A stretch of DNA of 64,000 nt from Halarcobacter sp. (GTDB lineage: Bacteria > Campylobacterota > Campylobacteria > Campylobacterales > Arcobacteraceae). Under the pieces are notes generated by a model. The model saw only the letters and a list, made by a program, of their open reading frames with translations, was not told the DNA's origin and did not search any database. The position numbers and the translations under genes were made by a program. The stretch lies in assembly GCA_048571215.1 (NCBI GenBank), contig CP182352.1, positions 2,496,001 to 2,560,000 on the forward strand, written 5' to 3'. Of the stretch, positions 24,161 through 64,000 are shown one piece after another. Position 1 is the first letter of the stretch, and each line of letters starts with the position of its first letter.

Positions 24161-25039
24161 TTAATTTTTTATTTTTTTATTATATATCTTTATTTTCGTC
24201 TTGTATTTTGACGAATTGAGATAATTAGTTGGGAGACTAGGTAATTTTTTTTCTAAAATATATTTAGAAAGAATTGAACTAAGAATTATTTTTCTAATTT
24301 TATGTTCAATATAAATACCACACTTACAATTTATCATTGAAATGTTATAAAAACGATTCCATGTTTTACCATTATCTTGAGATATTTCTAGTTTGTTTTC
24401 ATTTCCTTTTAAATGTATGTCCTTATATCTCATATTTAATTTTTCAATAATTAACTTACTTGGGGGTAAAATTTTTATTTTTAGAGAAATTTCTCTTAAT
24501 TTTTCTCTAATTAAAATTACATTTCCTATACATTCTATATCCCAATTATCAATATATACATCCCATTTATTATTAATAATTTTTAACGATTTTTTTCCTA
24601 ATGAATTATAAAAAACTCCTGAAATCAATATTCCATTCTCATCTTTTTGTATAGATAAAATTGGCTTCTCATTTATTTGAATTAAGTTTTTACAATTTTT
24701 ATAATGTGTACCAGCTATGCTTATATCTAAATCATTATCTGAAAAATCAAAATATTCATGAGCAAATTTATCTGATAAACATTTTGGTTTTTCATTCGCT
24801 TTAATAACTTTTTCTAAAGATAAAACTCCTCTATTTCTTTTTTGATTACATTGCATACATAATAATGTAATTTCATCTTCACTATGTTCTAAAGCATCTT
24901 TAAATTCAGGATAGAAATGTTCATAATCATACCATGCAAATCCACATATTACACAGCCATAACCACATCTTTTTCTTACATTTCTTTTTATATCTGCTGG
25001 TATATTTCTAGATAAACCATGTTTGTTAATACTAGACAT
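24161..25039 (-). CDS. HNH endonuclease-like protein
   Basis: SR.IP.D.KR.VR.RCGYGCVICG...YEHF.P..H..ITLLC..CN; probable start MSSINK at 25039. Confidence 0.7.
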   Translation of the reverse strand: MSSINKHGLSRNIPADIKRNVRKRCGYGCVICGFAWYDYEHFYPEFKDALEHSEDEITLLCMQCNQKRNRGVLSLEKVIKANEKPKCLSDKFAHEYFDFSDNDLDISIAGTHYKNCKNLIQINEKPILSIQKDENGILISGVFYNSLGKKSLKIINNKWDVYIDNWDIECIGNVILIREKLREISLKIKILPPSKLIIEKLNMRYKDIHLKGNENKLEISQDNGKTWNRFYNISMINCKCGIYIEHKIRKIILSSILSKYILEKKLPSLPTNYLNSSKYKTKIKIYNKKIKN

Positions 25040-25130
25040 AACTTTCCTAAATAAAATTAATAAAATCATTATATTTAAAATATAATTTATTCTCTCTTGA
25101 AGAGTAAGCAGAGAAAAATTTTCTTATGTA

Positions 25131-25359
25131 AATTGAATATCACACCAACTAAAACAAAATGGTACTAAAAAATGCAAAGGTCAATTTTCCCTATTCCCGC
25201 ATTTGAGAAGCCGAGTGTTTATTTATTGTTTCGGAGAAGTTTTGTAACTGTTTGAACAGAACAAATATGCTGGGAGCATATTTTTATGTGAGTTTTACAA
25301 AACAGAAACAATAAATAATAAGCGAGGGTAGTTTCACCTTCGAAACCCGCGGGATAATT
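25131..25359 (+). repeat. Structured repeat element copy A, left part (interrupted by IS110)
   Basis: Aligns with 27023-27256; nested inverted repeats. Confidence 0.85.
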
Positions 25360-25369
25360 CGTATAATAA

Positions 25370-25600
25370 AATATTGGAAATATGATAGTATATTTTCATA
25401 GAGTTCAATAGAAGATGATATATTGTGTGGGTGGTTGAAGCAATTAAAAATAATTTTAATTAGCTTGTAAAGAAGTTCAATAGTTATACTTCAAATTTGA
25501 GTGGCAACAAGAACAGTTTTATAACTAGTTCGTATTTACGAGTCTAAAGTTTGTATGACGAAATATCAGGTAGGAATTTTATTCCTACCCTAACGAACTC
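25370..25600 (+). ncRNA. Putative IS110 bridge RNA
   Basis: TATAAT at 25362; two stem-enclosed internal loops whose unpaired segments match the target (25429-25436, 25469-25475) and the donor junction (25501-25508, 25537-25542); transcript ends approximate. Confidence 0.75.
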
Positions 25601-25626
25601 TTTATATTAATACAAAGGTTCTAGAT

Positions 25627-26610
25627 ATGTATTCTATCGGATTAGATATAAGTAAGTCAACAATTAATATTTATATCCCTATCAATGATTTAGATATTCA
25701 AATATCAAATAATTTGAAATCACTTAAAGGTTTTTATTCTAAGTTAAAAAAACTTTATAAAAAAGATATAGATAAACTTGTATTTGTTTTTGAACCTACA
25801 GCTAATTATTCCTTTTTAATTAAAAAGTTTTGTTCTGAAAAAAGTATACACTGTTTTATTGTTAATCCAAAGAAAAGTGCTAACTTTGCTAAAGCAATTG
25901 GTCAAAGAAATAAAACTGACCTTTTAGATGCTAGAATGTTATCTCAGATGATAGTTACTGCAAGAAAAAATCAGATTAAAATACCCATTATTAATCCTTA
26001 TGCCGAGGAATTAAAAGAGCTTATTACATATTATAAATTTATATCAAAAATTAAAACTCAAAATAAAAATCATTTGGAAGCTTTAGTTTCAAAAGATGCT
26101 TCATCTATTATAATTAAATCATTAAGAAAAGATATAAAATCATTTGAAAAAAAAGAAAAAGATATTCTTATTGAGATAAAAAAAGTTATTGCAAAAGACA
26201 AAAATTTACATAATGCATTTTTAAATATCCAAACTATAAAAGGCATAGGAGAATTATCTTCAATTATATTATTACACCATTTTATACAATATCCTGATAC
26301 AAATCAAAAGCAAATTGTTTCATTAGCTGGATTAGATCCAGTTAGTAGAGATTCTGGTTCATCAATAAAAGGAAAAACAAAAATATCAAAATCTGGTTCA
26401 AAATTATGTAGGGGTACATTATTTATGGCAGTAATGACAGCGATACAATACAATGAAGAATTAAAAATATTTTATAATAGATTAAAAGAGAATGGCAAAC
26501 ATACTACTGTAGCACAAATTGCTGTAATGCGAAAAATGATTGTAATTGCTCACTCATTATATAAAAATAATAATATATATGACCCTAATAAATTTAAAAG
26601 TATATCATAA
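25627..26610 (+). CDS. IS110-family transposase (DEDD recombinase)
   Basis: GLDISK, FEPT, KTDLLDA (DEDD); I.GIG, AGLDP...SGSS, ISK.G...R. Confidence 0.95.
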   Translation: MYSIGLDISKSTINIYIPINDLDIQISNNLKSLKGFYSKLKKLYKKDIDKLVFVFEPTANYSFLIKKFCSEKSIHCFIVNPKKSANFAKAIGQRNKTDLLDARMLSQMIVTARKNQIKIPIINPYAEELKELITYYKFISKIKTQNKNHLEALVSKDASSIIIKSLRKDIKSFEKKEKDILIEIKKVIAKDKNLHNAFLNIQTIKGIGELSSIILLHHFIQYPDTNQKQIVSLAGLDPVSRDSGSSIKGKTKISKSGSKLCRGTLFMAVMTAIQYNEELKIFYNRLKENGKHTTVAQIAVMRKMIVIAHSLYKNNNIYDPNKFKSIS

Positions 26611-26659
26611 ATATTAGATTTAAATATTTTATATTTTATCATTTTTTAAGGTGGCAACT

Positions 26660-26990: not shown

Positions 26991-27022
26991 ACAAATACTC
27001 TAGCCACGAACTTTCTCTTAGT

Positions 27023-27372
27023 AATTGAGTATCACACCAGCTTAAATAAAATGGTAACAAAAAATGCAAAGGTCCTTATCCCACCTTCCCGCATTTGAGA
27101 AGCCGAGTGTTTATTTATCTCTTTTGAAAACAAGTGACTAAACTGTCTGAAGCGTAAAGAAATGTGCTGGGAGCACATTTTAGCAAGTTTTTAGGCACTC
27201 AAAAGGGATGAATAATAAACGAGGGAACCTTCGGCTTCGAAACCTGTGGGATGATTTTTTTGCTACTTTCTTTTTGCCTGCGAGCAGGATTGACATCACA
27301 AAAGAAAGTCGAGAAAGCCAAGACGTACATTAAAAGTTTATTTATACTCAAATATTTTGAAAATAGTTTTAA
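27023..27372 (+). repeat. Structured repeat element copy B (uninterrupted)
   Basis: Homologous to copy A with compensatory stem changes. Confidence 0.85.
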
Positions 27373-57358: not shown

Positions 57359-57417
57359 TATCTCTTAAGATAAAATATATTATGATTCATAAAAATAATA
57401 AATTATGGATGACAATA

Positions 57418-57762
57418 ATGAATAAGTTCTTAGAAAATGCAAAAAAAATTGAAGTGGAAAATAGTAGTGTAGACTTTTTTGAGTTTGAAAAAGATGGACT
57501 CACATATTATTATTTTGATAGTTCTATAACTACTCCACCTCATCCAATGGTTAATGCAATGTTAGGATTAAAACTGCTTGATAATCCAAAAAAAAGACTT
57601 TTAATGAGAAATCATCAAAAACCAATGGGACTTTTCCCTAAAATAAAAGAAAATTTTGAATATGAAATTTTAGAAGAGGATGAAGATATTTTAATTGAAT
57701 TTAAATATAAACAAGGAACAACTTTAAATGTAGATTTTAATGATAGCAATTGCCAAGGTTAA
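57418..57762 (+). CDS. Hypothetical protein
   Basis: ORF with PPHPMVNAM.GL motif; start 57418 or 57382. Confidence 0.65.
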   Translation: MNKFLENAKKIEVENSSVDFFEFEKDGLTYYYFDSSITTPPHPMVNAMLGLKLLDNPKKRLLMRNHQKPMGLFPKIKENFEYEILEEDEDILIEFKYKQGTTLNVDFNDSNCQG

Positions 57763-57823
57763 TCCTTTAAGCTATCAAGTTTTTTTATAGATAATTTTTA
57801 GTATAATTTTTTAAAATTTGTGG

Positions 57824-57852
57824 TTTTTTAAGGTGGCAACTGACTCCTAATT
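57824..57852 (+). repeat. Cassette junction site type A (left border of array)
   Basis: TTTTTTAAGGTGGCAA-CT-GACTCCTAATT; first 18 nt identical to IS110 right end 26642-26659. Confidence 0.85.
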
Positions 57853-57917
57853 TTTCTAATTTCCGCCCGTAATTTCCGCCCGGATTTTCTATTTTCTATT
57901 TTCTATTTTTTATTTTT

Positions 57918-58262
57918 CTATTTTTTCGATGTTTTTACATAATATACAATATTTAATATTTGTAATGTTGAGATACTTAGAATTATAAAATAATACTTAT
58001 CTAAACTATAACTACATTCAACATTAACATATAAAAAAAATATATTCAATAATATAGCAATTACTAAAATCAATAATGAAATAACTATATATTTAGTATT
58101 TTTCACTAATTTATCCTCAAAAAAATAAGATGCGAAAAACATTCCACCACCAATAAAGGACAACTCTTTAATATTATTATCGTATAAAAAAACAAGAATA
58201 AAACAATTTATTGCTACAACTTTAAATAAGCATACTAAAACATAATTTAAAACTATTTTCAT
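57918..58262 (-). CDS. Putative immunity membrane protein (cassette 1)
   Basis: Hydrophobic 114 aa; ATGA overlap with the upstream toxin-CT. Confidence 0.65.
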   Translation of the reverse strand: MKIVLNYVLVCLFKVVAINCFILVFLYDNNIKELSFIGGGMFFASYFFEDKLVKNTKYIVISLLILVIAILLNIFFLYVNVECSYSLDKYYFIILSISTLQILNIVYYVKTSKK

Positions 58263-58813
58263 GGAGATATATACTCTTGAGTCTGCTTCATTGCTTCATT
58301 ACTAAGATAGCCTGCAGTATCACTTATTTTATGAAAACCTATAGTTGTTGACACATCTCTTGTAAAATCAACCCAATTTGTCTCACCTATTGAGAATAAT
58401 GTTAAATGTTTTAATCCTGTAAATACTGTTGATGCAGTGTAAGGAATAACACTAACTAATCTCATAAATTTATTACTACTCATCATCAAACCTAGCCTAG
58501 CACTTTTTTCAGCCATACTGTCAAGTCTATTAGCTGTAAATCGCATATCCTCTTTTACATTTCTGTATTTTCCATGTAGTGCATATTCTTGTAAAGATTC
58601 ATTAGTATGCATCGCATGATTAAACAAATGCACAAAAGCCCCAGTAACAGTACCATTTGCAAACTTACCACCACTTATTTCTGAAACAGTACCACCAATT
58701 ACTGCCATTATCATTGTTCTTCCTTCAACACCACCATAGTCTTTATTACCAACACTAAAACCACTTGAAGCAAACCCACTCCAAAATCCTGCGCTAAATC
58801 TTCCACCTTGTGC
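58259..58813 (-). pseudogene. Orphan polymorphic toxin C-terminal module (cassette 1)
   Basis: Frame open from AQGGRFSAGFWSGFA..GGKFANGTVTGAFVHLFN into a variable tail. Confidence 0.75.
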
Positions 58814-58884
58814 TTATATATAATTATATATATTACTTAGTTAAAAGCTATTGAAAGTGGAGATTCATCCTTAGGGGTGTTAGT
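58806..58884. repeat. 79-bp linker repeat, copy 1
   Basis: One mismatch to 61815-61893; contains the TATATATAATTATATATA palindrome. Confidence 0.85.
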
Positions 58885-58940
58885 TTGGTGTTAGTTTCTT
58901 GCCATCACCTATCCTTAGTTTTAATAAGGATAATTAAAGG

Positions 58941-58970
58941 TTTTTTAAGGTGGCGACTGTCCCCTTTATT
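58941..58970 (+). repeat. Cassette junction site type A
   Basis: TTTTTTAAGGTGGCGA-CT-GTCCCCTTTATT. Confidence 0.85.
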
Positions 58971-59009
58971 TCAAGCTGGGGCTTGGGAACGAGGGAAACT
59001 TACTTAACT

Positions 59010-59297
59010 TTATTTAATGTCCATATTTCCTTTAAAAATAAACATTATTGTTACAATACATAATAAAACTAAGGAGAAATTTTGAATCTCATTTGCATAT
59101 GGATAATTGTCAGAAAAAATATATATATAAAAAACTCCTCCTCCCCAAAAATTTCCATAAATAAATGCACTAAAAAGAACTAATCCTATAGTAGGAAGTC
59201 TATATAAAAACTTTTTATCTTTAAAATAAGATAAAAGTTTATAGTTTATTAAAAGAGAAAAAATACCTATTATGATATATATTAATAGCTTAGTCAT
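59010..59297 (-). CDS. Putative immunity membrane protein (cassette 2)
   Basis: 95 aa, about 3 TM; overlaps the toxin-CT stop. Confidence 0.65.
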   Translation of the reverse strand: MTKLLIYIIIGIFSLLINYKLLSYFKDKKFLYRLPTIGLVLFSAFIYGNFWGGGVFYIYIFSDNYPYANEIQNFSLVLLCIVTIMFIFKGNMDIK

Positions 59298-59847
59298 TTA
59301 ATGTTTTACCTGACAAACCTGTTTCTAATAATAAAGCACCTTTTCCAGCACTTGTTGAATATTTATAAGTTGGAATCGCTATTTCAGCTTTTCCTGGAAA
59401 ATACTTTGAGATTGTTTTAATACCTGTTCTTAATAAGTTAGGTGCTGCTCCTATGGCAGAAACTCCTACTTCAATATATTTATAATAGCCTTTTCCAAAT
59501 TTATCATCGTAAAATTCATGTAACAAACCTATTTTACCTGTGTAACCTTCATATATATTGTTACTTCCATGTGCAATTAATGCCAATCCAGCAGGAGCTC
59601 CCCAGCCAGTCAATGTAAGCCCTGTATCCGCAATAACCTGTAAACCTCCTGCAAACATATTAATAATACCTTCCGCATTAAACAAATGCACAAAAGCCCC
59701 AGTAACAGCACCATTAGCAAACTTTCCACCACTTATTTCTGAAACAGTACCTGATACAAAAGATGTAAACATAGTTCCCTTTCCTACTCCCCAACTACTT
59801 GATGCTACAAATCCAGAAACTGCAAATCCAGACCAAAATCCTGCACT
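59290..59847 (-). pseudogene. Orphan polymorphic toxin C-terminal module (cassette 2)
   Basis: SAGFWSGFA..GGKFANGAVTGAFVHLFN then a tail containing LIAHG.NN.YEG (DUF4225-like by recollection). Confidence 0.75.
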
Positions 59848-59852
59848 CCATT

Positions 59853-59877
59853 GATAAAGGTGCCTGTCCCCTTTATT
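59853..59877 (+). repeat. Cassette junction site type B
   Basis: GATAAAGGTGC-CT-GTCCCCTTTATT. Confidence 0.85.
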
Positions 59878-59928
59878 GTTATTTGTCCCCTTTATTCTAG
59901 TATTATCGTTCTTCTAGTATTTTTGTAT

Positions 59929-60393
59929 TTATTCCACCTTTATAATTTCACTAGTTTTACAAAATTCTTTTATTGACTTTTTTTCTCTTTTTTTATTTAA
60001 TTCATTAAATGAAATTAAATAAGGATACTTATATACATTTATTTTTTCAATAAATCCTTTTTTTAGAGTAATCTTTTCTTTTTTTATATAACAACTATCT
60101 ATATTTATGTTTAATTTTAAATTTCTAATTCGAAATTTATATTCATCAATAGACTTAACTTTCTTGATAGTGTATAATATACTCTCTTGTTTAAAATTAC
60201 TTAAAAATATAAAAGATTCAATGAAATTATTATTAAAATTTTGACTCAAGTTTGAATTTAAATTCCTAAATAAAAAAGGTTTTTCTATAGTAAAGTTATC
60301 TATTTTTACATTTTTACTATCAAAAAAACCAACCTTAAAAATAATAAAAATAATTATAAATATTAGAATAATTATATAAAAATACTTTCTCAT
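59929..60393 (-). CDS. Putative immunity protein with N-terminal membrane anchor (cassette 3)
   Basis: 154 aa; RBS AAGGA; preceded by a short ORF at 60395-60490. Confidence 0.55.
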   Translation of the reverse strand: MRKYFYIIILIFIIIFIIFKVGFFDSKNVKIDNFTIEKPFLFRNLNSNLSQNFNNNFIESFIFLSNFKQESILYTIKKVKSIDEYKFRIRNLKLNINIDSCYIKKEKITLKKGFIEKINVYKYPYLISFNELNKKREKKSIKEFCKTSEIIKVE

Positions 60394-60394
60394 A

Positions 60395-60490
60395 TTACTT
60401 TTCCTTATATAAGAAATTTAATTCTATTTTTTTTCTTCTTGCGTATTCAGTTATTACACTATTCATTGCATTATCATAGTCATTCATCAT
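60395..60490 (-). pseudogene. Short remnant ORF, probable extreme end of a toxin tail (cassette 3)
   Basis: MMNDYDNAMNSVITEYARRKKIELNFLYKEK*; stop lies 1 nt before the next ATG. Confidence 0.35.
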
Positions 60491-60614
60491 CTTATCAATT
60501 ATTACCCTCTCTTTATTCTAAAGATGAAAGTGATTAGATGTCACTTTTTCTATATTTTAATATTCACTTTTTTATTGAAAAAAGTAAAACAAAAAGGCAT
60601 TCCTTTCAAAATTG

Positions 60615-60667
60615 TTTTTTAAGGTGGCGACTGACCCCTAATTTGAAGGTGAAAACTGACCCTATTT
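60615..60667 (+). repeat. Tandem cassette junction sites (type A plus a degenerate copy)
   Basis: TTTTTTAAGGTGGCGA-CT-GACCCCTAATTT then GAAGGTGAAAA-CT-GACCCTATTT. Confidence 0.8.
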
Positions 60668-60793
60668 TTGTCTTCTTAAAAACTTAATAAATAATAATAT
60701 CATAATCAACAAAAAGAATATAAAGGAATAAAAATATTCTCCTGTACTTATTTCATTTGATAAAATAAAAAATCCATAAATTTTTGAAAACAT
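60662..60793 (-). CDS. Small hydrophobic putative immunity peptide (cassette 4), below ORF-track cutoff
   Basis: MFSKIYGFFILSNEISTGEYFYSFIFFLLIMILLFIKFLRRQK*; stop falls inside the junction site. Confidence 0.45.
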   Translation of the reverse strand: MFSKIYGFFILSNEISTGEYFYSFIFFLLIMILLFIKFLRRQK

Positions 60794-60807
60794 ATTTATC
60801 CAATTTT

Positions 60808-61302
60808 TTATTGTCTATTTTTTCTATTATCATAATAATCAATTGCTCCTTTTATCATTCCATATCCTATTGCAGGAATTTTAAAAAACTTTGATGCTAA
60901 GTTAATATTATCAGTATAGACATCAACTGTTTCACCTATGTTTTTACCTGCGTTGAAACCATCATACCCACCCTTAACTACGGAACATACAAAGCTTTCA
61001 ATACATGGAGCCTTAGGTCTCAAAATATAAGATGCATTATGTCCAGTATCTTTTAAACTTGCAGTATCAACTGTAGTAATATAATATCCATCTTTCCCTG
61101 TTCCGTCATTAACAACTGTCATATTTAATCCTTTAGCACGCAACTCTGCTACTTGCTGCTCCGCCTCATGCTTCAAATAATTAAACAAATGCACAAAAGT
61201 CCCAGTAACAGCACCATTTGGAAACTTACCACCACTTATTTCTGAAACAGTACCTGATACTAAAGATGTAAACATAGTTCCCTTTTCTACTCCCCAACTA
61301 CT
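60808..61302 (-). pseudogene. Orphan polymorphic toxin C-terminal module (cassette 4)
   Basis: Conserved block nearly identical in DNA to cassette 2 (GTMFTS..GGKF.NGAVTG.FVHLFN) with a different tail. Confidence 0.75.
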
Positions 61303-61386
61303 TGGTACATATATCTTATATCCACTTTTCCCATATATAATTTTTTTGATAATTATATCATATGTTTTATTTCTTTTATTGTTATA

Positions 61387-61416
61387 TTTTTTTAAAAGGC
61401 GACTGTCCCCTTTATT
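61387..61416 (+). repeat. Cassette junction site type A variant
   Basis: TTTTTTTAAAAGGCGA-CT-GTCCCCTTTATT abutting an immunity stop codon. Confidence 0.75.
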
Positions 61417-61656
61417 TTATTTTAGGAATTTTTTATATATTAAATAGCATATATACAAAAAAAATCCAAATCCAAAAAGTATATTTGTAATAGCTGAACT
61501 TTCAGATAAAATAATCATTCCATCTGTTTTAGAAATTACTTTATTCCCAAAATATGCATAAATACCAAAATAAAAAAAATAACCTAATGCTAATAGTATT
61601 AATAATAAATACCCACCATATCTAAAGATAAAAAATGTAAAATTATTTTTCATCAA
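61417..61656 (-). CDS. Putative immunity membrane protein (cassette 5)
   Basis: Paralogue of 61953-62192 (YFGIY...GNKVI.K..GM..LSE.SAITNI). Confidence 0.7.
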   Translation of the reverse strand: MMKNNFTFFIFRYGGYLLLILLALGYFFYFGIYAYFGNKVISKTDGMIILSESSAITNILFGFGFFLYICYLIYKKFLK

Positions 61657-61822
61657 ATGTTCCTTTTATTTTATCTATTAAATTAAATGCAGCACCATGT
61701 GGGGTAGATGGAGGCATACTACTATTAAATACATCATTACCTACTTCTGCAATATAAGGAATAGCAACATATTCATATTTTACTAACAATCTAGTCAAAG
61801 TATATGCTAATCCTCCTTGTGC
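61643..61822 (-). pseudogene. Truncated toxin tail (cassette 5)
   Basis: AQGGLAY..EVGNDVFNSSMPPSTPHGAAFNLIDKIKGTFDEK*; homologous to the end of cassette 6. Confidence 0.7.
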
Positions 61823-61893
61823 TTATATATAATTATATATATTACTTAGTTAAAAGCTATTGAAAGTGGAGATTCATCCTCAGGGGTGTTAGT
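61815..61893. repeat. 79-bp linker repeat, copy 2
   Basis: One mismatch to 58806-58884. Confidence 0.85.
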
Positions 61894-61899
61894 CTGTGG

Positions 61900-61929
61900 T
61901 TTTTTAAGGTGGCAACTGACCCTTAATTT
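61900..61929 (+). repeat. Cassette junction site type A
   Basis: TTTTTTAAGGTGGCAA-CT-GACCCTTAATTT; first 18 nt identical to the IS110 right end. Confidence 0.85.
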
Positions 61930-61952
61930 CCTTAATTTCTTTATTTTAATTT

Positions 61953-62192
61953 TTAATTTTTCTTATATTGATCCTTGAAATAAATAAATAAAATTATTAT
62001 TACTCCTATAATTATATTTGTAATTGCTGATTTTTCTGATAAATAAACCATTCCTTGACTTTTAAGAATTACTTTATTACCCATTAATGAATATATACCA
62101 AAATATCCTATAAAGATACCACCAAAGATACAACTTAATATAAAATTGGAATATTTATCTGATAATAGTAATTCTAAAAACCATTTTTTCAT
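61953..62192 (-). CDS. Putative immunity membrane protein (cassette 6)
   Basis: 79 aa, 2 TM; ATGA overlap with the toxin-CT. Confidence 0.7.
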   Translation of the reverse strand: MKKWFLELLLSDKYSNFILSCIFGGIFIGYFGIYSLMGNKVILKSQGMVYLSEKSAITNIIIGVIIILFIYFKDQYKKN

Positions 62193-62740
62193 TTTTTTGA
62201 ATTCCTTATATTATTTATAATATTTATTGCAGCACCATGTGGTGTAACAGGTGGCATACTTTCGTTAAAAATATCATTTACTACTTCAACTGTATAAAGT
62301 TTACCTGCAAATCCTTGCGTTTTGAAAATCATAATTACTCCTCTTGCAATCCTTACCGAAGGTAGTGCTAATGCAACATTAAGAGCTAAATATTTATCCT
62401 TAGAACCATGTACTCTTAATTCAGAGACATATCTATATCCACCACCAAGATCAACATAGTAACCATTCTCTCTTTCAATGGGATTTACAATTTTTCCTTT
62501 TCGACCTGTTGATTCAAGATACTTCAAATCTTTTTCAGCCTCATGCAACTTATAATTAAACAAATAAGTAAAAGCCCCCTTAACTGCACCATTAGCAAAT
62601 TTGCCACCAGAAATAACAGAAACTGTTCCTGATAAAACTCCACTTACCATTGCTTGAATTGCTTCATGTGCTTTTCCTAAATATTTTCCAACTATAGGAG
62701 CAAAAAAGGAACTTGCAAAACCAGACCAAAAACCTGAACT
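62189..62740 (-). pseudogene. Orphan polymorphic toxin C-terminal module (cassette 6)
   Basis: SSGFWSGFA..GGKFANGAVKGAFTYLFN plus a variable tail. Confidence 0.75.
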
Positions 62741-62745
62741 CTATC

Positions 62746-62770
62746 GATAAAAGTGCCTGTCCCCTTTATT
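62746..62770 (+). repeat. Cassette junction site type B
   Basis: GATAAAAGTGC-CT-GTCCCCTTTATT. Confidence 0.85.
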
Positions 62771-62774
62771 TTTA

Positions 62775-63089
62775 TTATCTTTCATCAGGAAATTTTTCAA
62801 AATATTTTTCAAAATCAATTGTTTTTATATCACATTTAGGACACATACCTTTTTCTAAAGTAGAATAAGTATATGTCTCTTTACATTTTGGGCATTTTGA
62901 ATATTCAATTTTTTGTTTTATTCTTTTTGCTAAAAAATAAATAAAAATGGCAGAAAATACCCATAGTAAAGACTCTATATTCGAAACCTTATGCCAATGT
63001 CGGACATAAACCTCTCCATAAAACAAACCTAGAATACCTTCAATAAAATTTACTATTGAAATTAAATATAAACTATTCTTTAAATTCAT
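62775..63089 (-). CDS. Putative immunity protein, 2 TM plus Zn ribbon (cassette 7)
   Basis: CPKC..CPKC after two hydrophobic segments; TAATG overlap with the upstream ORF. Confidence 0.65.
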   Translation of the reverse strand: MNLKNSLYLISIVNFIEGILGLFYGEVYVRHWHKVSNIESLLWVFSAIFIYFLAKRIKQKIEYSKCPKCKETYTYSTLEKGMCPKCDIKTIDFEKYFEKFPDER

Positions 63090-63457
63090 TATTCATTACT
63101 TTTTAAAAATTCTACTAATGACTTTCTATTATCATACATATTATAAATTTTTCCAAAACTAGTATCAGCAGGCATACTAGAATTTACAACATCATTAGTG
63201 AAATTAACTACAGCTATAGCTTCAAGTGGTCTAGTGTAAAATAATGTCTTCACAAAATTATATGCCTTTACTATAGGAACAAACAAAGTTATTACACCTA
63301 TTGCAGTTAAATCTCCATGTGAATTTATTTTTCTTTCACCTACTGGATTTTCTGCGGCATATCCTATTGAATTATTTAAAACTTTCGCATCATTTGCTGT
63401 TTGAAGATATTTATAAGATGCATTAAACAAATGCACAAAAGCTCCCGTGACAGACAC
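63089..63457 (-). pseudogene. Orphan polymorphic toxin C-terminal module (cassette 7)
   Basis: VTGAFVHLFN plus a tail with NDVVNSSMP; begins at an inverted junction-like site. Confidence 0.7.
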
Positions 63458-63465
63458 CTTTACTC

Positions 63466-64000
63466 CTACTCCCCACTAATTATACTTTGATTAATCACAC
63501 CAACCATAGCTTTTATAAGCAAACTATTATCTTTTTTTATTGGTTCAAACTCTTTTTCTGTTATATTCTCGATATCATTAGGTACTTCAAATCCTACTTT
63601 TTCATTAATTGATGATAAACCTGAAAGATAAACCATATTGAATGTTGGAAAATTCTTATACTTTATTTCTCCTAAAGGATTTAACAAATACATTTTTGCA
63701 TCAACACCCAAAACAGAAAAATATTTTTTAAATCCAATAAAATGATGAGATACCAAACCTGAACCCTTATTTGTATAGAGAAAAGGATGAAGATATAGGC
63801 TAACATTCGAATCATTTATTACTATAACCGCTTTTAATTTTAAATCATTTACAAGCTTATCATAAATATTTTGTTTGTTTATAATCCATTCTTTTTCATT
63901 TGCTATTATTAGATTATTTAATGACTCTAAGCTAATGTTTTCTTGATCTAAATTAACTAATTTAACATTTATTTGACTTTTTAGTTCTTCTTCAATTTGT
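63466..64000 (-). CDS. Hypothetical protein, partial (frame open to window end)
   Basis: Manual translation shows no stop from 63999 down to the TAG at 63466. Confidence 0.6.
   Translation of the reverse strand, partial: QIEEELKSQINVKLVNLDQENISLESLNNLIIANEKEWIINKQNIYDKLVNDLKLKAVIVINDSNVSLYLHPFLYTNKGSGLVSHHFIGFKKYFSVLGVDAKMYLLNPLGEIKYKNFPTFNMVYLSGLSSINEKVGFEVPNDIENITEKEFEPIKKDNSLLIKAMVGVINQSIISGE

Follow-up and report, generated by a model that had tools for sequence, protein, structure and literature searches.

Arrays of orphan 3' tips of rhs genes, with their immunity genes, have been described by Kirchberger et al. (2017, PMC5361080; for this and most other papers cited, our statements refer to the accessible portions of the text). 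In polyimmunity loci, only XerC/D is mentioned nearby in the accessible portion of the account (PMC3482391). Two kinds of mobile elements are also relevant here. TIRYT elements or TIRtrons (Di Nocera et al. 2013, PMC3733652), which correspond to TnpA-Y1 subclasses 2.1/2.2 (Quentin et al. 2018, PMC6006769), have terminal inverted repeats (TIRs) with a published consensus GGGGWSAS (PMC3733652, PMC6006769). Some elements of the IS110/IS1111 group target repeats: IS621 and ISPa11 repetitive extragenic palindromic (REP) sequences, ISKpn4 and ISPst6 attC sites, IS4321 and IS5075 the TIRs of Tn21 (PMC11208160, PMC11187229). We have analyzed an array of Rhs tips at positions 57824 to 63465 of a 64,000 nt stretch from Halarcobacter sp. 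(the window, G000:C1:2496001-2560000), where elements of both kinds are involved. The source genome, G000, is a single contig of 3.61 Mb with 28.5% GC. Other genomes are designated G002, G020 and G147, and loci fetched from relatives or other taxa are designated by L and a number. Further studies on Rhs displacement and on orphan tip-immunity arrays were reportedly published by Jackson in 2009 and Poole in 2011.

Our overall reading, which we consider evenly balanced between right and wrong, is that this is an array of displaced tips bounded by TIRYT TIRs, in which a TIRYT would make the join and IS110 would be a parasite of the TIR.

Displaced tips and the repeats at their boundaries

The array contains six modules formed by a tip and a small gene, together with a lone gene and a lipoprotein-like gene. 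A sequence-only reading of the window had counted at least seven toxin-immunity modules; the array of modules is real, their number was too high. The five toxin fragments which it described as retaining a GAF..LFN block do retain it. This pre-tip block is found in 12 of the 151 family genomes, near the C-terminus of Rhs/FG-GAP proteins of 1,700-2,300 amino acids (aa), and sequence comparison identifies the fragments of the array as displaced C-terminal tips of such proteins, with a length of 2,200-2,300 aa. No full-length parent with this block has been found in G000. None of the tips and partner genes scores over the Pfam or NCBIfam cut-off, and an Atlas search gave no function for two tips, its matches being leads only. 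The names "toxin" and "immunity" are taken from the Rhs context and are putative.

The same reading had assigned the boundaries to the right end of an IS110 element present in the window. The sites are as it described them: TTTTTTAAGGTGGCAACT is found exactly at 57824, at 61900 and at the IS110 right end (26642), with 17 of 18 positions at 58941 and 60615, and a degenerate variant at 61387. These left halves do derive from IS110 right ends. Not nearly every boundary has them, as had been proposed: they are present at five of the seven main boundaries, while 59864 and 62757 carry AAA(G/A)GTGC instead, the native TIR of a Y1 element just beyond the window. When the boundaries of the array and of its relatives are considered together, many different left halves are found. 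The constant part of these repeats is CTGWCCCY, not the IS110 half.

There are 16 copies of TTAAGGTGGCRACT in the 3.61-Mb genome, where an order-3 Markov model predicts 0.05. Seven are right ends of intact IS110s and nine have no intact transposase; a (G/C)WCCCY-like half follows all nine of the latter (9/9) and none of the former (0/7). The strict core CTGWCCCY appears eight times in the 6.5-kb array (0.12 expected), but it is not enriched in the whole genome (68 copies against 56 expected).

About 380 bp beyond the window, the only PF01797 gene of G000 is located. This Y1_Tnp gene matches PF01797 with an E value of 1.2e-18, and NF047646 with 78.2 bits, under the cut-off of 80. H60, H62 and Y120, the HUH motif and the catalytic tyrosine, are invariant across 12 Y1 homologs. 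Upstream of the gene we find GGGGACAGGCACCTT, the same sequence as at boundaries 59864 and 62757, and the element end AAGGTGC-CTGTCCCC carries the same motif as the boundaries of the array. Homologs of this gene are present in 29 of the 151 family genomes. In our reading of the homolog loci, an outward-facing CTGWCCCY is found on at least one side in 21 of 30 loci, and on both sides in 11 of 30 (4 of the 5 closest). The inner arm differs from one TIRYT subfamily to the next: AAGGTGC, AATTGTAC, AAAGTAGC, TTATCAC, AAAGGGT and ATTCATGAC. Since the motif flanks Y1 homologs facing outward and matches GGGGWSAS, the sequences identify CTGWCCCY as the TIR of TIRYT/TIRtron Y1-HUH elements. A C-terminal helix-turn-helix (HTH) is absent from the close homolog L110; the longer type L100 has HTH_23.

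The boundary sites correspond to left TIRs (GGGGWCAG on the Rhs coding strand), located 14-78 nt past each partner gene. The tips begin at scattered positions of the block (KGAVIG, ITKAQ, R|WS, S|GFW, PSSWG, FTLRT to VTGAF), from 8 to more than 100 nt from the TIR.

G000 has related arrays at about 807-812 kb and at 2,377 kb; near 3,396 kb, a full Rhs is accompanied by an orphan tip. The same core is used as punctuation there, with other left halves. In the last of these loci (L007, G000:C1:3395400-3404300), a full Rhs gene with an open frame of 2365 aa comes first, then its partner, a TIR belonging to a different subtype, the orphan tip and more TIRs: the architecture is that of the array, the Rhs type is different. 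An inverted pair of IS110-stub/TIR hybrids (CT-CTCCCC) is found at G000:C1:474306-478281, facing an ABC operon which we take to be of glycine-betaine type; its right-hand site is common to G147.

IS110 elements inserted in the TIRs

G000 contains seven intact IS110s: four identical copies of the type found in the window, and three at 63% protein identity. The resident recombinase matches PF01548 and PF02371 (DEDD and Tnp20) and has an upstream non-coding end. The sequence-only reading held that the local bridge RNA aims at a sequence different from the boundaries, which is correct: its target is a REP-like repeat, not a TIR. This palindromic repeat of about 300 bp, with over 30 copies in the genome, is found at 25100-25357 and 27020-27330 of the window. 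One of its ends contains GGAGATTCATCCTCWGGGGTGTTA, which is in turn targeted by a further IS110 (L169). A 302-aa gene beside the IS110 (24161-25069) has a weak HNH match (E 0.029, under the cut-off).

A sibling IS110 with another target guide, or a different recombinase, had been invoked for the array. Siblings with guides near GGTGC and GGGACAG do exist in relatives, but they parasitize the TIR. They are 56-58% identical to the resident copy and have the same layout. The guides of L145 are AAAGTATCC/GGGACAG, and the element is inserted in AAGTATC-CT-GTCCCC; those of L149 are ATGGTGCG/GGGACAG, inserted in CGTGC-CT-GTCCCC. The left ends of other siblings abut AAAGGTGC, the TIR arm of the array itself. 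Guides and flanks covary: with 18 distinct guide sets, 104/126 and 108/126 positions agree, shuffle means being 72 and 73, and none of 20,000 shuffles reaches these values. The set comes from 26 parsed elements, one with Ns having been dropped; some right guides are mis-parsed, and relatives are not independent. The TIR of the array agrees with the guides of L149 at 6/7 and 7/7 positions, and with those of the two resident types at 4/7 and 3/7. In a tree of 26 rows, a branch with 100/99 support separates the seven TIR-targeting elements, in the company of two elements with another target, from the resident ones. The sequences thus identify an IS110 clade whose bridge-RNA target guides spell TIRYT TIRs and which inserts at the CT of the TIR. 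Apparently, this clade had not been described before.

Because this clade inserts at the CT of the TIR, the hybrid [IS110 right end]-CT-[TIR outer half] is formed. Stubs in the array have a length of 14-65 nt and represent two or three distinct IS110 lineages at the least: 57784-57841 agrees with L156 along 64 nt and 58941 with L145 along 25 nt. The matches of other sites of G000 to L147 and L145 extend over 35-198 nt. The junction of a right end with a TIR appears 51 times in 24 of 184 family genomes (2 in the control). In 27 cases there is no transposase, in 8 it is present, in 4 it is partial, and 12 junctions are too close to a contig end. Left ends of the clade give 23 matches in 15 of these genomes; 7 are accompanied by a transposase, 11-12 are stranded, and 4 are too close to a contig end. 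Like free TIRs, the hybrid ends are found as inverted dimers and in tandem. In L228 (G002:C37:1218-1269), two of them form a REPIN-like inverted dimer, 28 bp apart. The longest remnant in G000 is a C-terminal fragment of a TIR-targeting IS110 with its full right end, joined to GTTCCC (G000:C1:1715240-1715482).

The strict left-end pattern of the clade has no matches in G000, and neither a TIR-targeting bridge RNA nor any bridge-RNA locus beyond the seven resident ones has been found in this genome. A diverged left-end stub of the clade, at G000:C1:2831975-2832030, ends before the guide loops. There is no Rfam match in positions 24000-64000 of the window, and the single-sequence fold of the sibling bridge RNA is not significant (z 0.57). 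None of eight sequencing runs listed for a DNA query is of RNA. The IS110 would appear to be a parasite of the TIR, not the builder of the array.

Growth of the array

Among the orphan blocks in the loci fetched from block-bearing family genomes, 17 of 24 have an oriented TIR (at most one mismatch, on the coding strand) within 420 nt upstream. The same is found in 3.7% of random windows and for 1 of 10 long genes. In 4 of the 24 blocks the TIR has the opposite orientation. A partner and a TIRtron follow full Rhs genes in L100, L102 and L103. In L100, the displaced tip begins 10 bp outside the right TIR. L305 has the order tip-partner-TIR-TIRYT-TIR followed, after 27 bp, by a displaced tip, with a 344-bp duplication at 98%. 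Flanking direct repeats of this kind are found in 7 of the 56 TIRYT loci with enough flank. In L285:8306-11201, from Nitrospira, a broken TIRYT lies between the copies of a 500-bp direct repeat, and 231 aa from the N-terminus of a 2917-aa protein are present upstream as a second copy; this is a possible displacement at the N-terminal end.

We propose the following steps. A new tip-immunity module would arrive with a TIRtron behind it, and would recombine into the rhs gene by homology in the conserved block. The non-homologous 3' side would be joined at or near the TIR, most likely by single-strand nicking and strand transfer by the TIRYT, and the old tip would be shifted downstream. Later deletions may strip the TIRtron body and any IS110 inside it, leaving a TIR, a stub and a truncated tip. 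It should be noted that E. coli TnpA-REP, which is related, cuts between C and T, not very specifically, and at distances which can exceed 400 nt from the site where it binds (PMC3333891). Since this enzyme also cuts there, a CT core is not diagnostic of IS110.

Several observations weigh against this proposal. The resident TIRYT is frameshifted and has lost its right TIR, its 3' end being fused to a 147-bp copy of the end of a gene which we call X. One or two of the 17 TIR matches are due to chance, 10 of the 24 blocks come from G000, and kin are not independent. Several tips have one identical TIR-tip junction, so that some modules must have arisen by copying and homologous exchange. Rhs arrays do not require TIRs for their formation: across the order, a TIRYT is present at only 2 of the 19 Rhs loci drawn from 42 positive genomes, and most multi-core arrays have no TIRs. 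An Rhs core motif is found in 5 of 80 TIRYT loci from all taxa (4 of about 15 in Campylobacterota, one of them already counted). We had predicted that only IS110 right ends would be stranded, which failed in part: 27 right ends are stranded, and also 11-12 of the 23 left ends, the two search patterns differing in sensitivity. The literature that we have located holds no assay of TIRYT activity on TIRs, and the role of TIRYT in the displacement join is suggested by the sequences.

A general link between TIRYT and Rhs across bacteria was also considered and is weak: 3 of 80 TIRYT loci by a home-made Rhs hidden Markov model (HMM), which missed the Rhs of G000 itself, and 5 of 80 by the motif scan.

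A different explanation, which we consider somewhat less likely, is that the TIRs are passive. TIRtrons would gather behind immunity genes, in a variable region which tolerates them, and decay there; the tips would be stacked by homologous recombination, homology-assisted illegitimate recombination and microhomology deletions, and the stubs would be scars. Homology-facilitated illegitimate recombination (HFIR) is indeed the published model (PMC5361080), Rhs arrays in the order are mostly without TIRs, microhomology deletions are seen at the AQGG junctions, and orphan TIRs and stubs are also found beside unrelated genes, such as the ABC operon mentioned above. Passive TIRs do not account well for their uniform orientation directly before most displaced tips. 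In addition, different codons of the block are the points of fusion for independent TIR subtypes, within about 10-20 nt, and displaced tips resume 10-27 bp outside the right TIR in both L100 and L305.

The model of the sequence-only reading, in which the array would be built or rearranged at CT cores by an IS110 bridge recombinase acting on donor half-sites, seems improbable. The half-sites are true left-donor arms of IS110 which match the resident donor guide GAGTGGCAAC, TIR-targeting siblings exist, and IS621 recombines a full donor with a partner that matches one half (bioRxiv 10.64898/2026.08.31.748434). Because a full donor needs no more than one matching arm in its partner, the stubs could be weak substrates for the seven resident elements. 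Excision, on the other hand, requires both donor arms (same source), and the array has left arms only: we find no right-donor half within it, and the only left end of the TIR-targeting clade in G000 is the diverged stub, 270 kb away. A donor arm to the left is found in none of 22 distinct left-end junctions. IS110 sequence is altogether missing from two of the seven main boundaries and from many boundaries of relatives. What looks like a right-donor junction at 58812 belongs to native coding sequence: three G020 copies show that this "CT" is part of K-A-Q-G-G, and the joint is 9 nt away. The same three copies rule out another candidate, the interpretation of spacers 58812-58958 and 61822-61917 as mini-IS110s. 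The integron-like cassette system proposed for this locus is accordingly unsupported, the invariant half being a TIRYT TIR, with no right-donor halves or TIR-targeting bridge RNA.

Breakpoints between strains had been expected at the CT. The comparison between genomes is limited to one module, common to G000 and G020 (97.6% over 378 bp), where both sides of the CT, with the TIR and the donor arm, are present in the two genomes. They diverge about 20 nt into the stub, G020 having a longer IS110 remnant which includes the C-terminus of the transposase. As stated above, the fragments start at scattered points of the coding block; together, these two results correspond to an outcome which the sequence-only reading itself had named as refuting. 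The contigs of runs X3, X4, X1 and X5, which drop rare forms and are silent on circles, show no clean excision joint at the CT core (run X1 may include the source sample). No plasmid match was found. Taken together, the observation of the sequence-only reading is confirmed and its interpretation is partly supported.

A system of the integron or rAID type, run by a tyrosine recombinase encoded elsewhere in the genome, is hardly credible: co-oriented short genes with a conserved intergenic motif do resemble rAID (PMC12247911), but the closest PF00589 gene lies about 240 kb from the array, the sites show neither attC-like RYYYAAC..GTTRRRY pairs nor a consistent hairpin (z is under -2 in 2 of 14 site folds), and the motif is already accounted for as a TIR.

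Our preferred reading is an array of displaced tips which TIRYT may have helped to join. Its strongest form, in which TIRYT would be the enzyme so far lacking for the displacement of Rhs C-termini in these Campylobacterota, linking a TIR-tagged new module to the old tip and so assembling polymorphic-toxin arrays, an IS110 clade parasitizes its TIRs and the stubs may serve resident bridge recombinases as half-match substrates, is doubtful.

Features of the array and comparison with known systems

The features are listed in Table 1. Gene X (57382-57762) and a DHH-type gene are direct neighbours in 7 of the 25 gene-X loci other than this one, so the array and the TIRYT form an insertion with a duplicated gene end. 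In contigs of runs X3 and X4 (L385:9203 to 8040), there are 31 foreign letters between the start region of the DHH gene and the duplicated end of gene X; this joint is possibly a repeat artefact. The GGAGATTCATCC spacer has four copies in G000 and three in G020, all of them inside Rhs-tip arrays. Tip 4 has apparently lost its front at a CACAAGG microhomology, and in a contig of run X5 this tip extends into the full conserved block.

Table 1. Predicted features of the array and its surroundings. Positions are those of the window, except those with the prefix G000:C1, which are outside it.
Feature	Position	Strand	Remarks
Intact IS110	25358..26659	+	Bridge-RNA region ~25390-25560, recombinase 25627-26610, right end up to 26659
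Gene X 3' end, 147 bp	57637..57783	+	Second copy (99.3%) beyond array and TIRYT, G000:C1:2561022-2561168
Right-end stub (~60 bp) of TIR-targeting IS110 + CT + TIR outer half GACTCC	57784..57847	+	Best match L156
Putative immunity 1, small membrane-protein gene, 114 aa	57918..58262	-	No family over cut-off
Displaced Rhs tip 1	58259..58813	-	Begins at AQGG of conserved pre-tip block
AT-rich spacer with REP-like GGAGATTCATCC motif	58814..58940	none	Not an IS110 left end
IS110 right-end stub (~25 nt) + CT + TIR outer half GTCCCC	58941..58964	+	
Putative immunity 2, 95 aa	59010..59297	-	40/88 residues identical to gene after full-length Rhs (L101)
Displaced Rhs tip 2	59290..59853	-	122/187 aligned residues identical to C-terminus of 2241-aa Rhs/FG-GAP protein (L101)
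Native TIRYT TIR AAAGGTGC-CT-GTCCCC + tandem partial copy	59856..59890	+	Without IS110 stub
Lone 154-aa gene	59929..60393	-	Without tip upstream
IS110 stub + CT + GACCCC, then second tandem site AAGGTGAAAA-CT-GACCCT	60615..60663	+	
Displaced tip 3 + short/broken partner open reading frame	60662..61317	-	Tip 60808-61317, begins PSSWG; partner 60662-60814
Degenerate IS110 stub + CT + GTCCCC	61387..61410	+	
Putative immunity 4 + tail of tip 4	61417..61822	-	Immunity 61417-61653; tip 61643-61822
Second AT-rich spacer + IS110 stub (18-20 nt) + CT + GACCCT	61823..61923	+	
Putative immunity 5 + displaced tip 5	61953..62740	-	Immunity 61953-62189; tip 62189-62740
Native TIR AAAAGTGC-CT-GTCCCC	62749..62764	+	
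Zinc-ribbon-like putative immunity 6 + displaced tip 6	62775..63454	-	Immunity 62775-63089; tip 63089-63454, begins VTGAF
Opposite-facing junction AAAGGTGT-CT-GTCAC	63449..63465	-	TIR inner half joined to tip coding sequence
Lipoprotein-like gene	63466..64000	-	Runs beyond window to G000:C1:2560224
Left TIR GGGGACAGGCACCTT	G000:C1:2560259-2560280		Just past lipoprotein-like gene
TIRYT Y1/HUH gene	G000:C1:2560378-2561040	+	Frameshifted near 2560900; right TIR replaced by gene-X duplication

Our searches, mostly of literature outside subscription journals and supplements, gave no paper in which TIRYT or IS110 is connected with Rhs arrays. The ends of the transposase element may indicate the way in which toxin tips are newly acquired. 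For the joining of the non-homologous end of an incoming module in Rhs tip displacement, the accessible text of Kirchberger et al. 2017 (PMC5361080) reports no evidence of an enzyme, and the array, together with L100 and L305, offers concrete substrates for its study and for that of TIRYT function. The natural IS110 clade, which has a variety of guides for TIR subtypes, adds a new class of target and a collection of bridge RNAs reprogrammed in nature. Should TIRYT be passive, what we have is ordinary: scars of nested mobile elements in an orphan Rhs array.

The elements of the array resemble the described TIRYT/TIRtrons in their Y1/HUH gene, in their GGGGWSAS inverted repeats, and in the free TIR copies found as monomers, dimers and clusters (PMC3733652, PMC6006769). 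They differ in that oriented TIRs punctuate Rhs modules, many of them with an IS110 stub as inner arm, neither of which appears in the accessible parts of the published accounts; unlike subclass 2.1, the short type of the array has no C-terminal HTH. With repeat-targeting IS110/IS1111 elements (PMC11208160, PMC11187229), the clade shares a bridge RNA upstream of the recombinase, a CT core, guides which match both flanks, and insertion into the end of another element. Here the target is the TIR of a TIRYT, and only stubs of the TIR-targeting clade are left in G000. The likeness to rAID (PMC12247911) and integrons lies in co-oriented short genes of defence type and conserved intergenic motifs. 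The array differs from them: there is no adjacent tyrosine recombinase or attC, the modules keep toxin tips, and the adjacent enzyme is a Y1 HUH transposase. The array also resembles the orphan tip-immunity arrays of Rhs (PMC5361080), with orphan 3' tips, immunity genes, a conserved block, and, as has been proposed, an anchor of homology followed by an illegitimate 3' join. The accessible text of that work reports no evidence of a joining enzyme, whereas in this array the ends of TIRYT elements are found at the joins.

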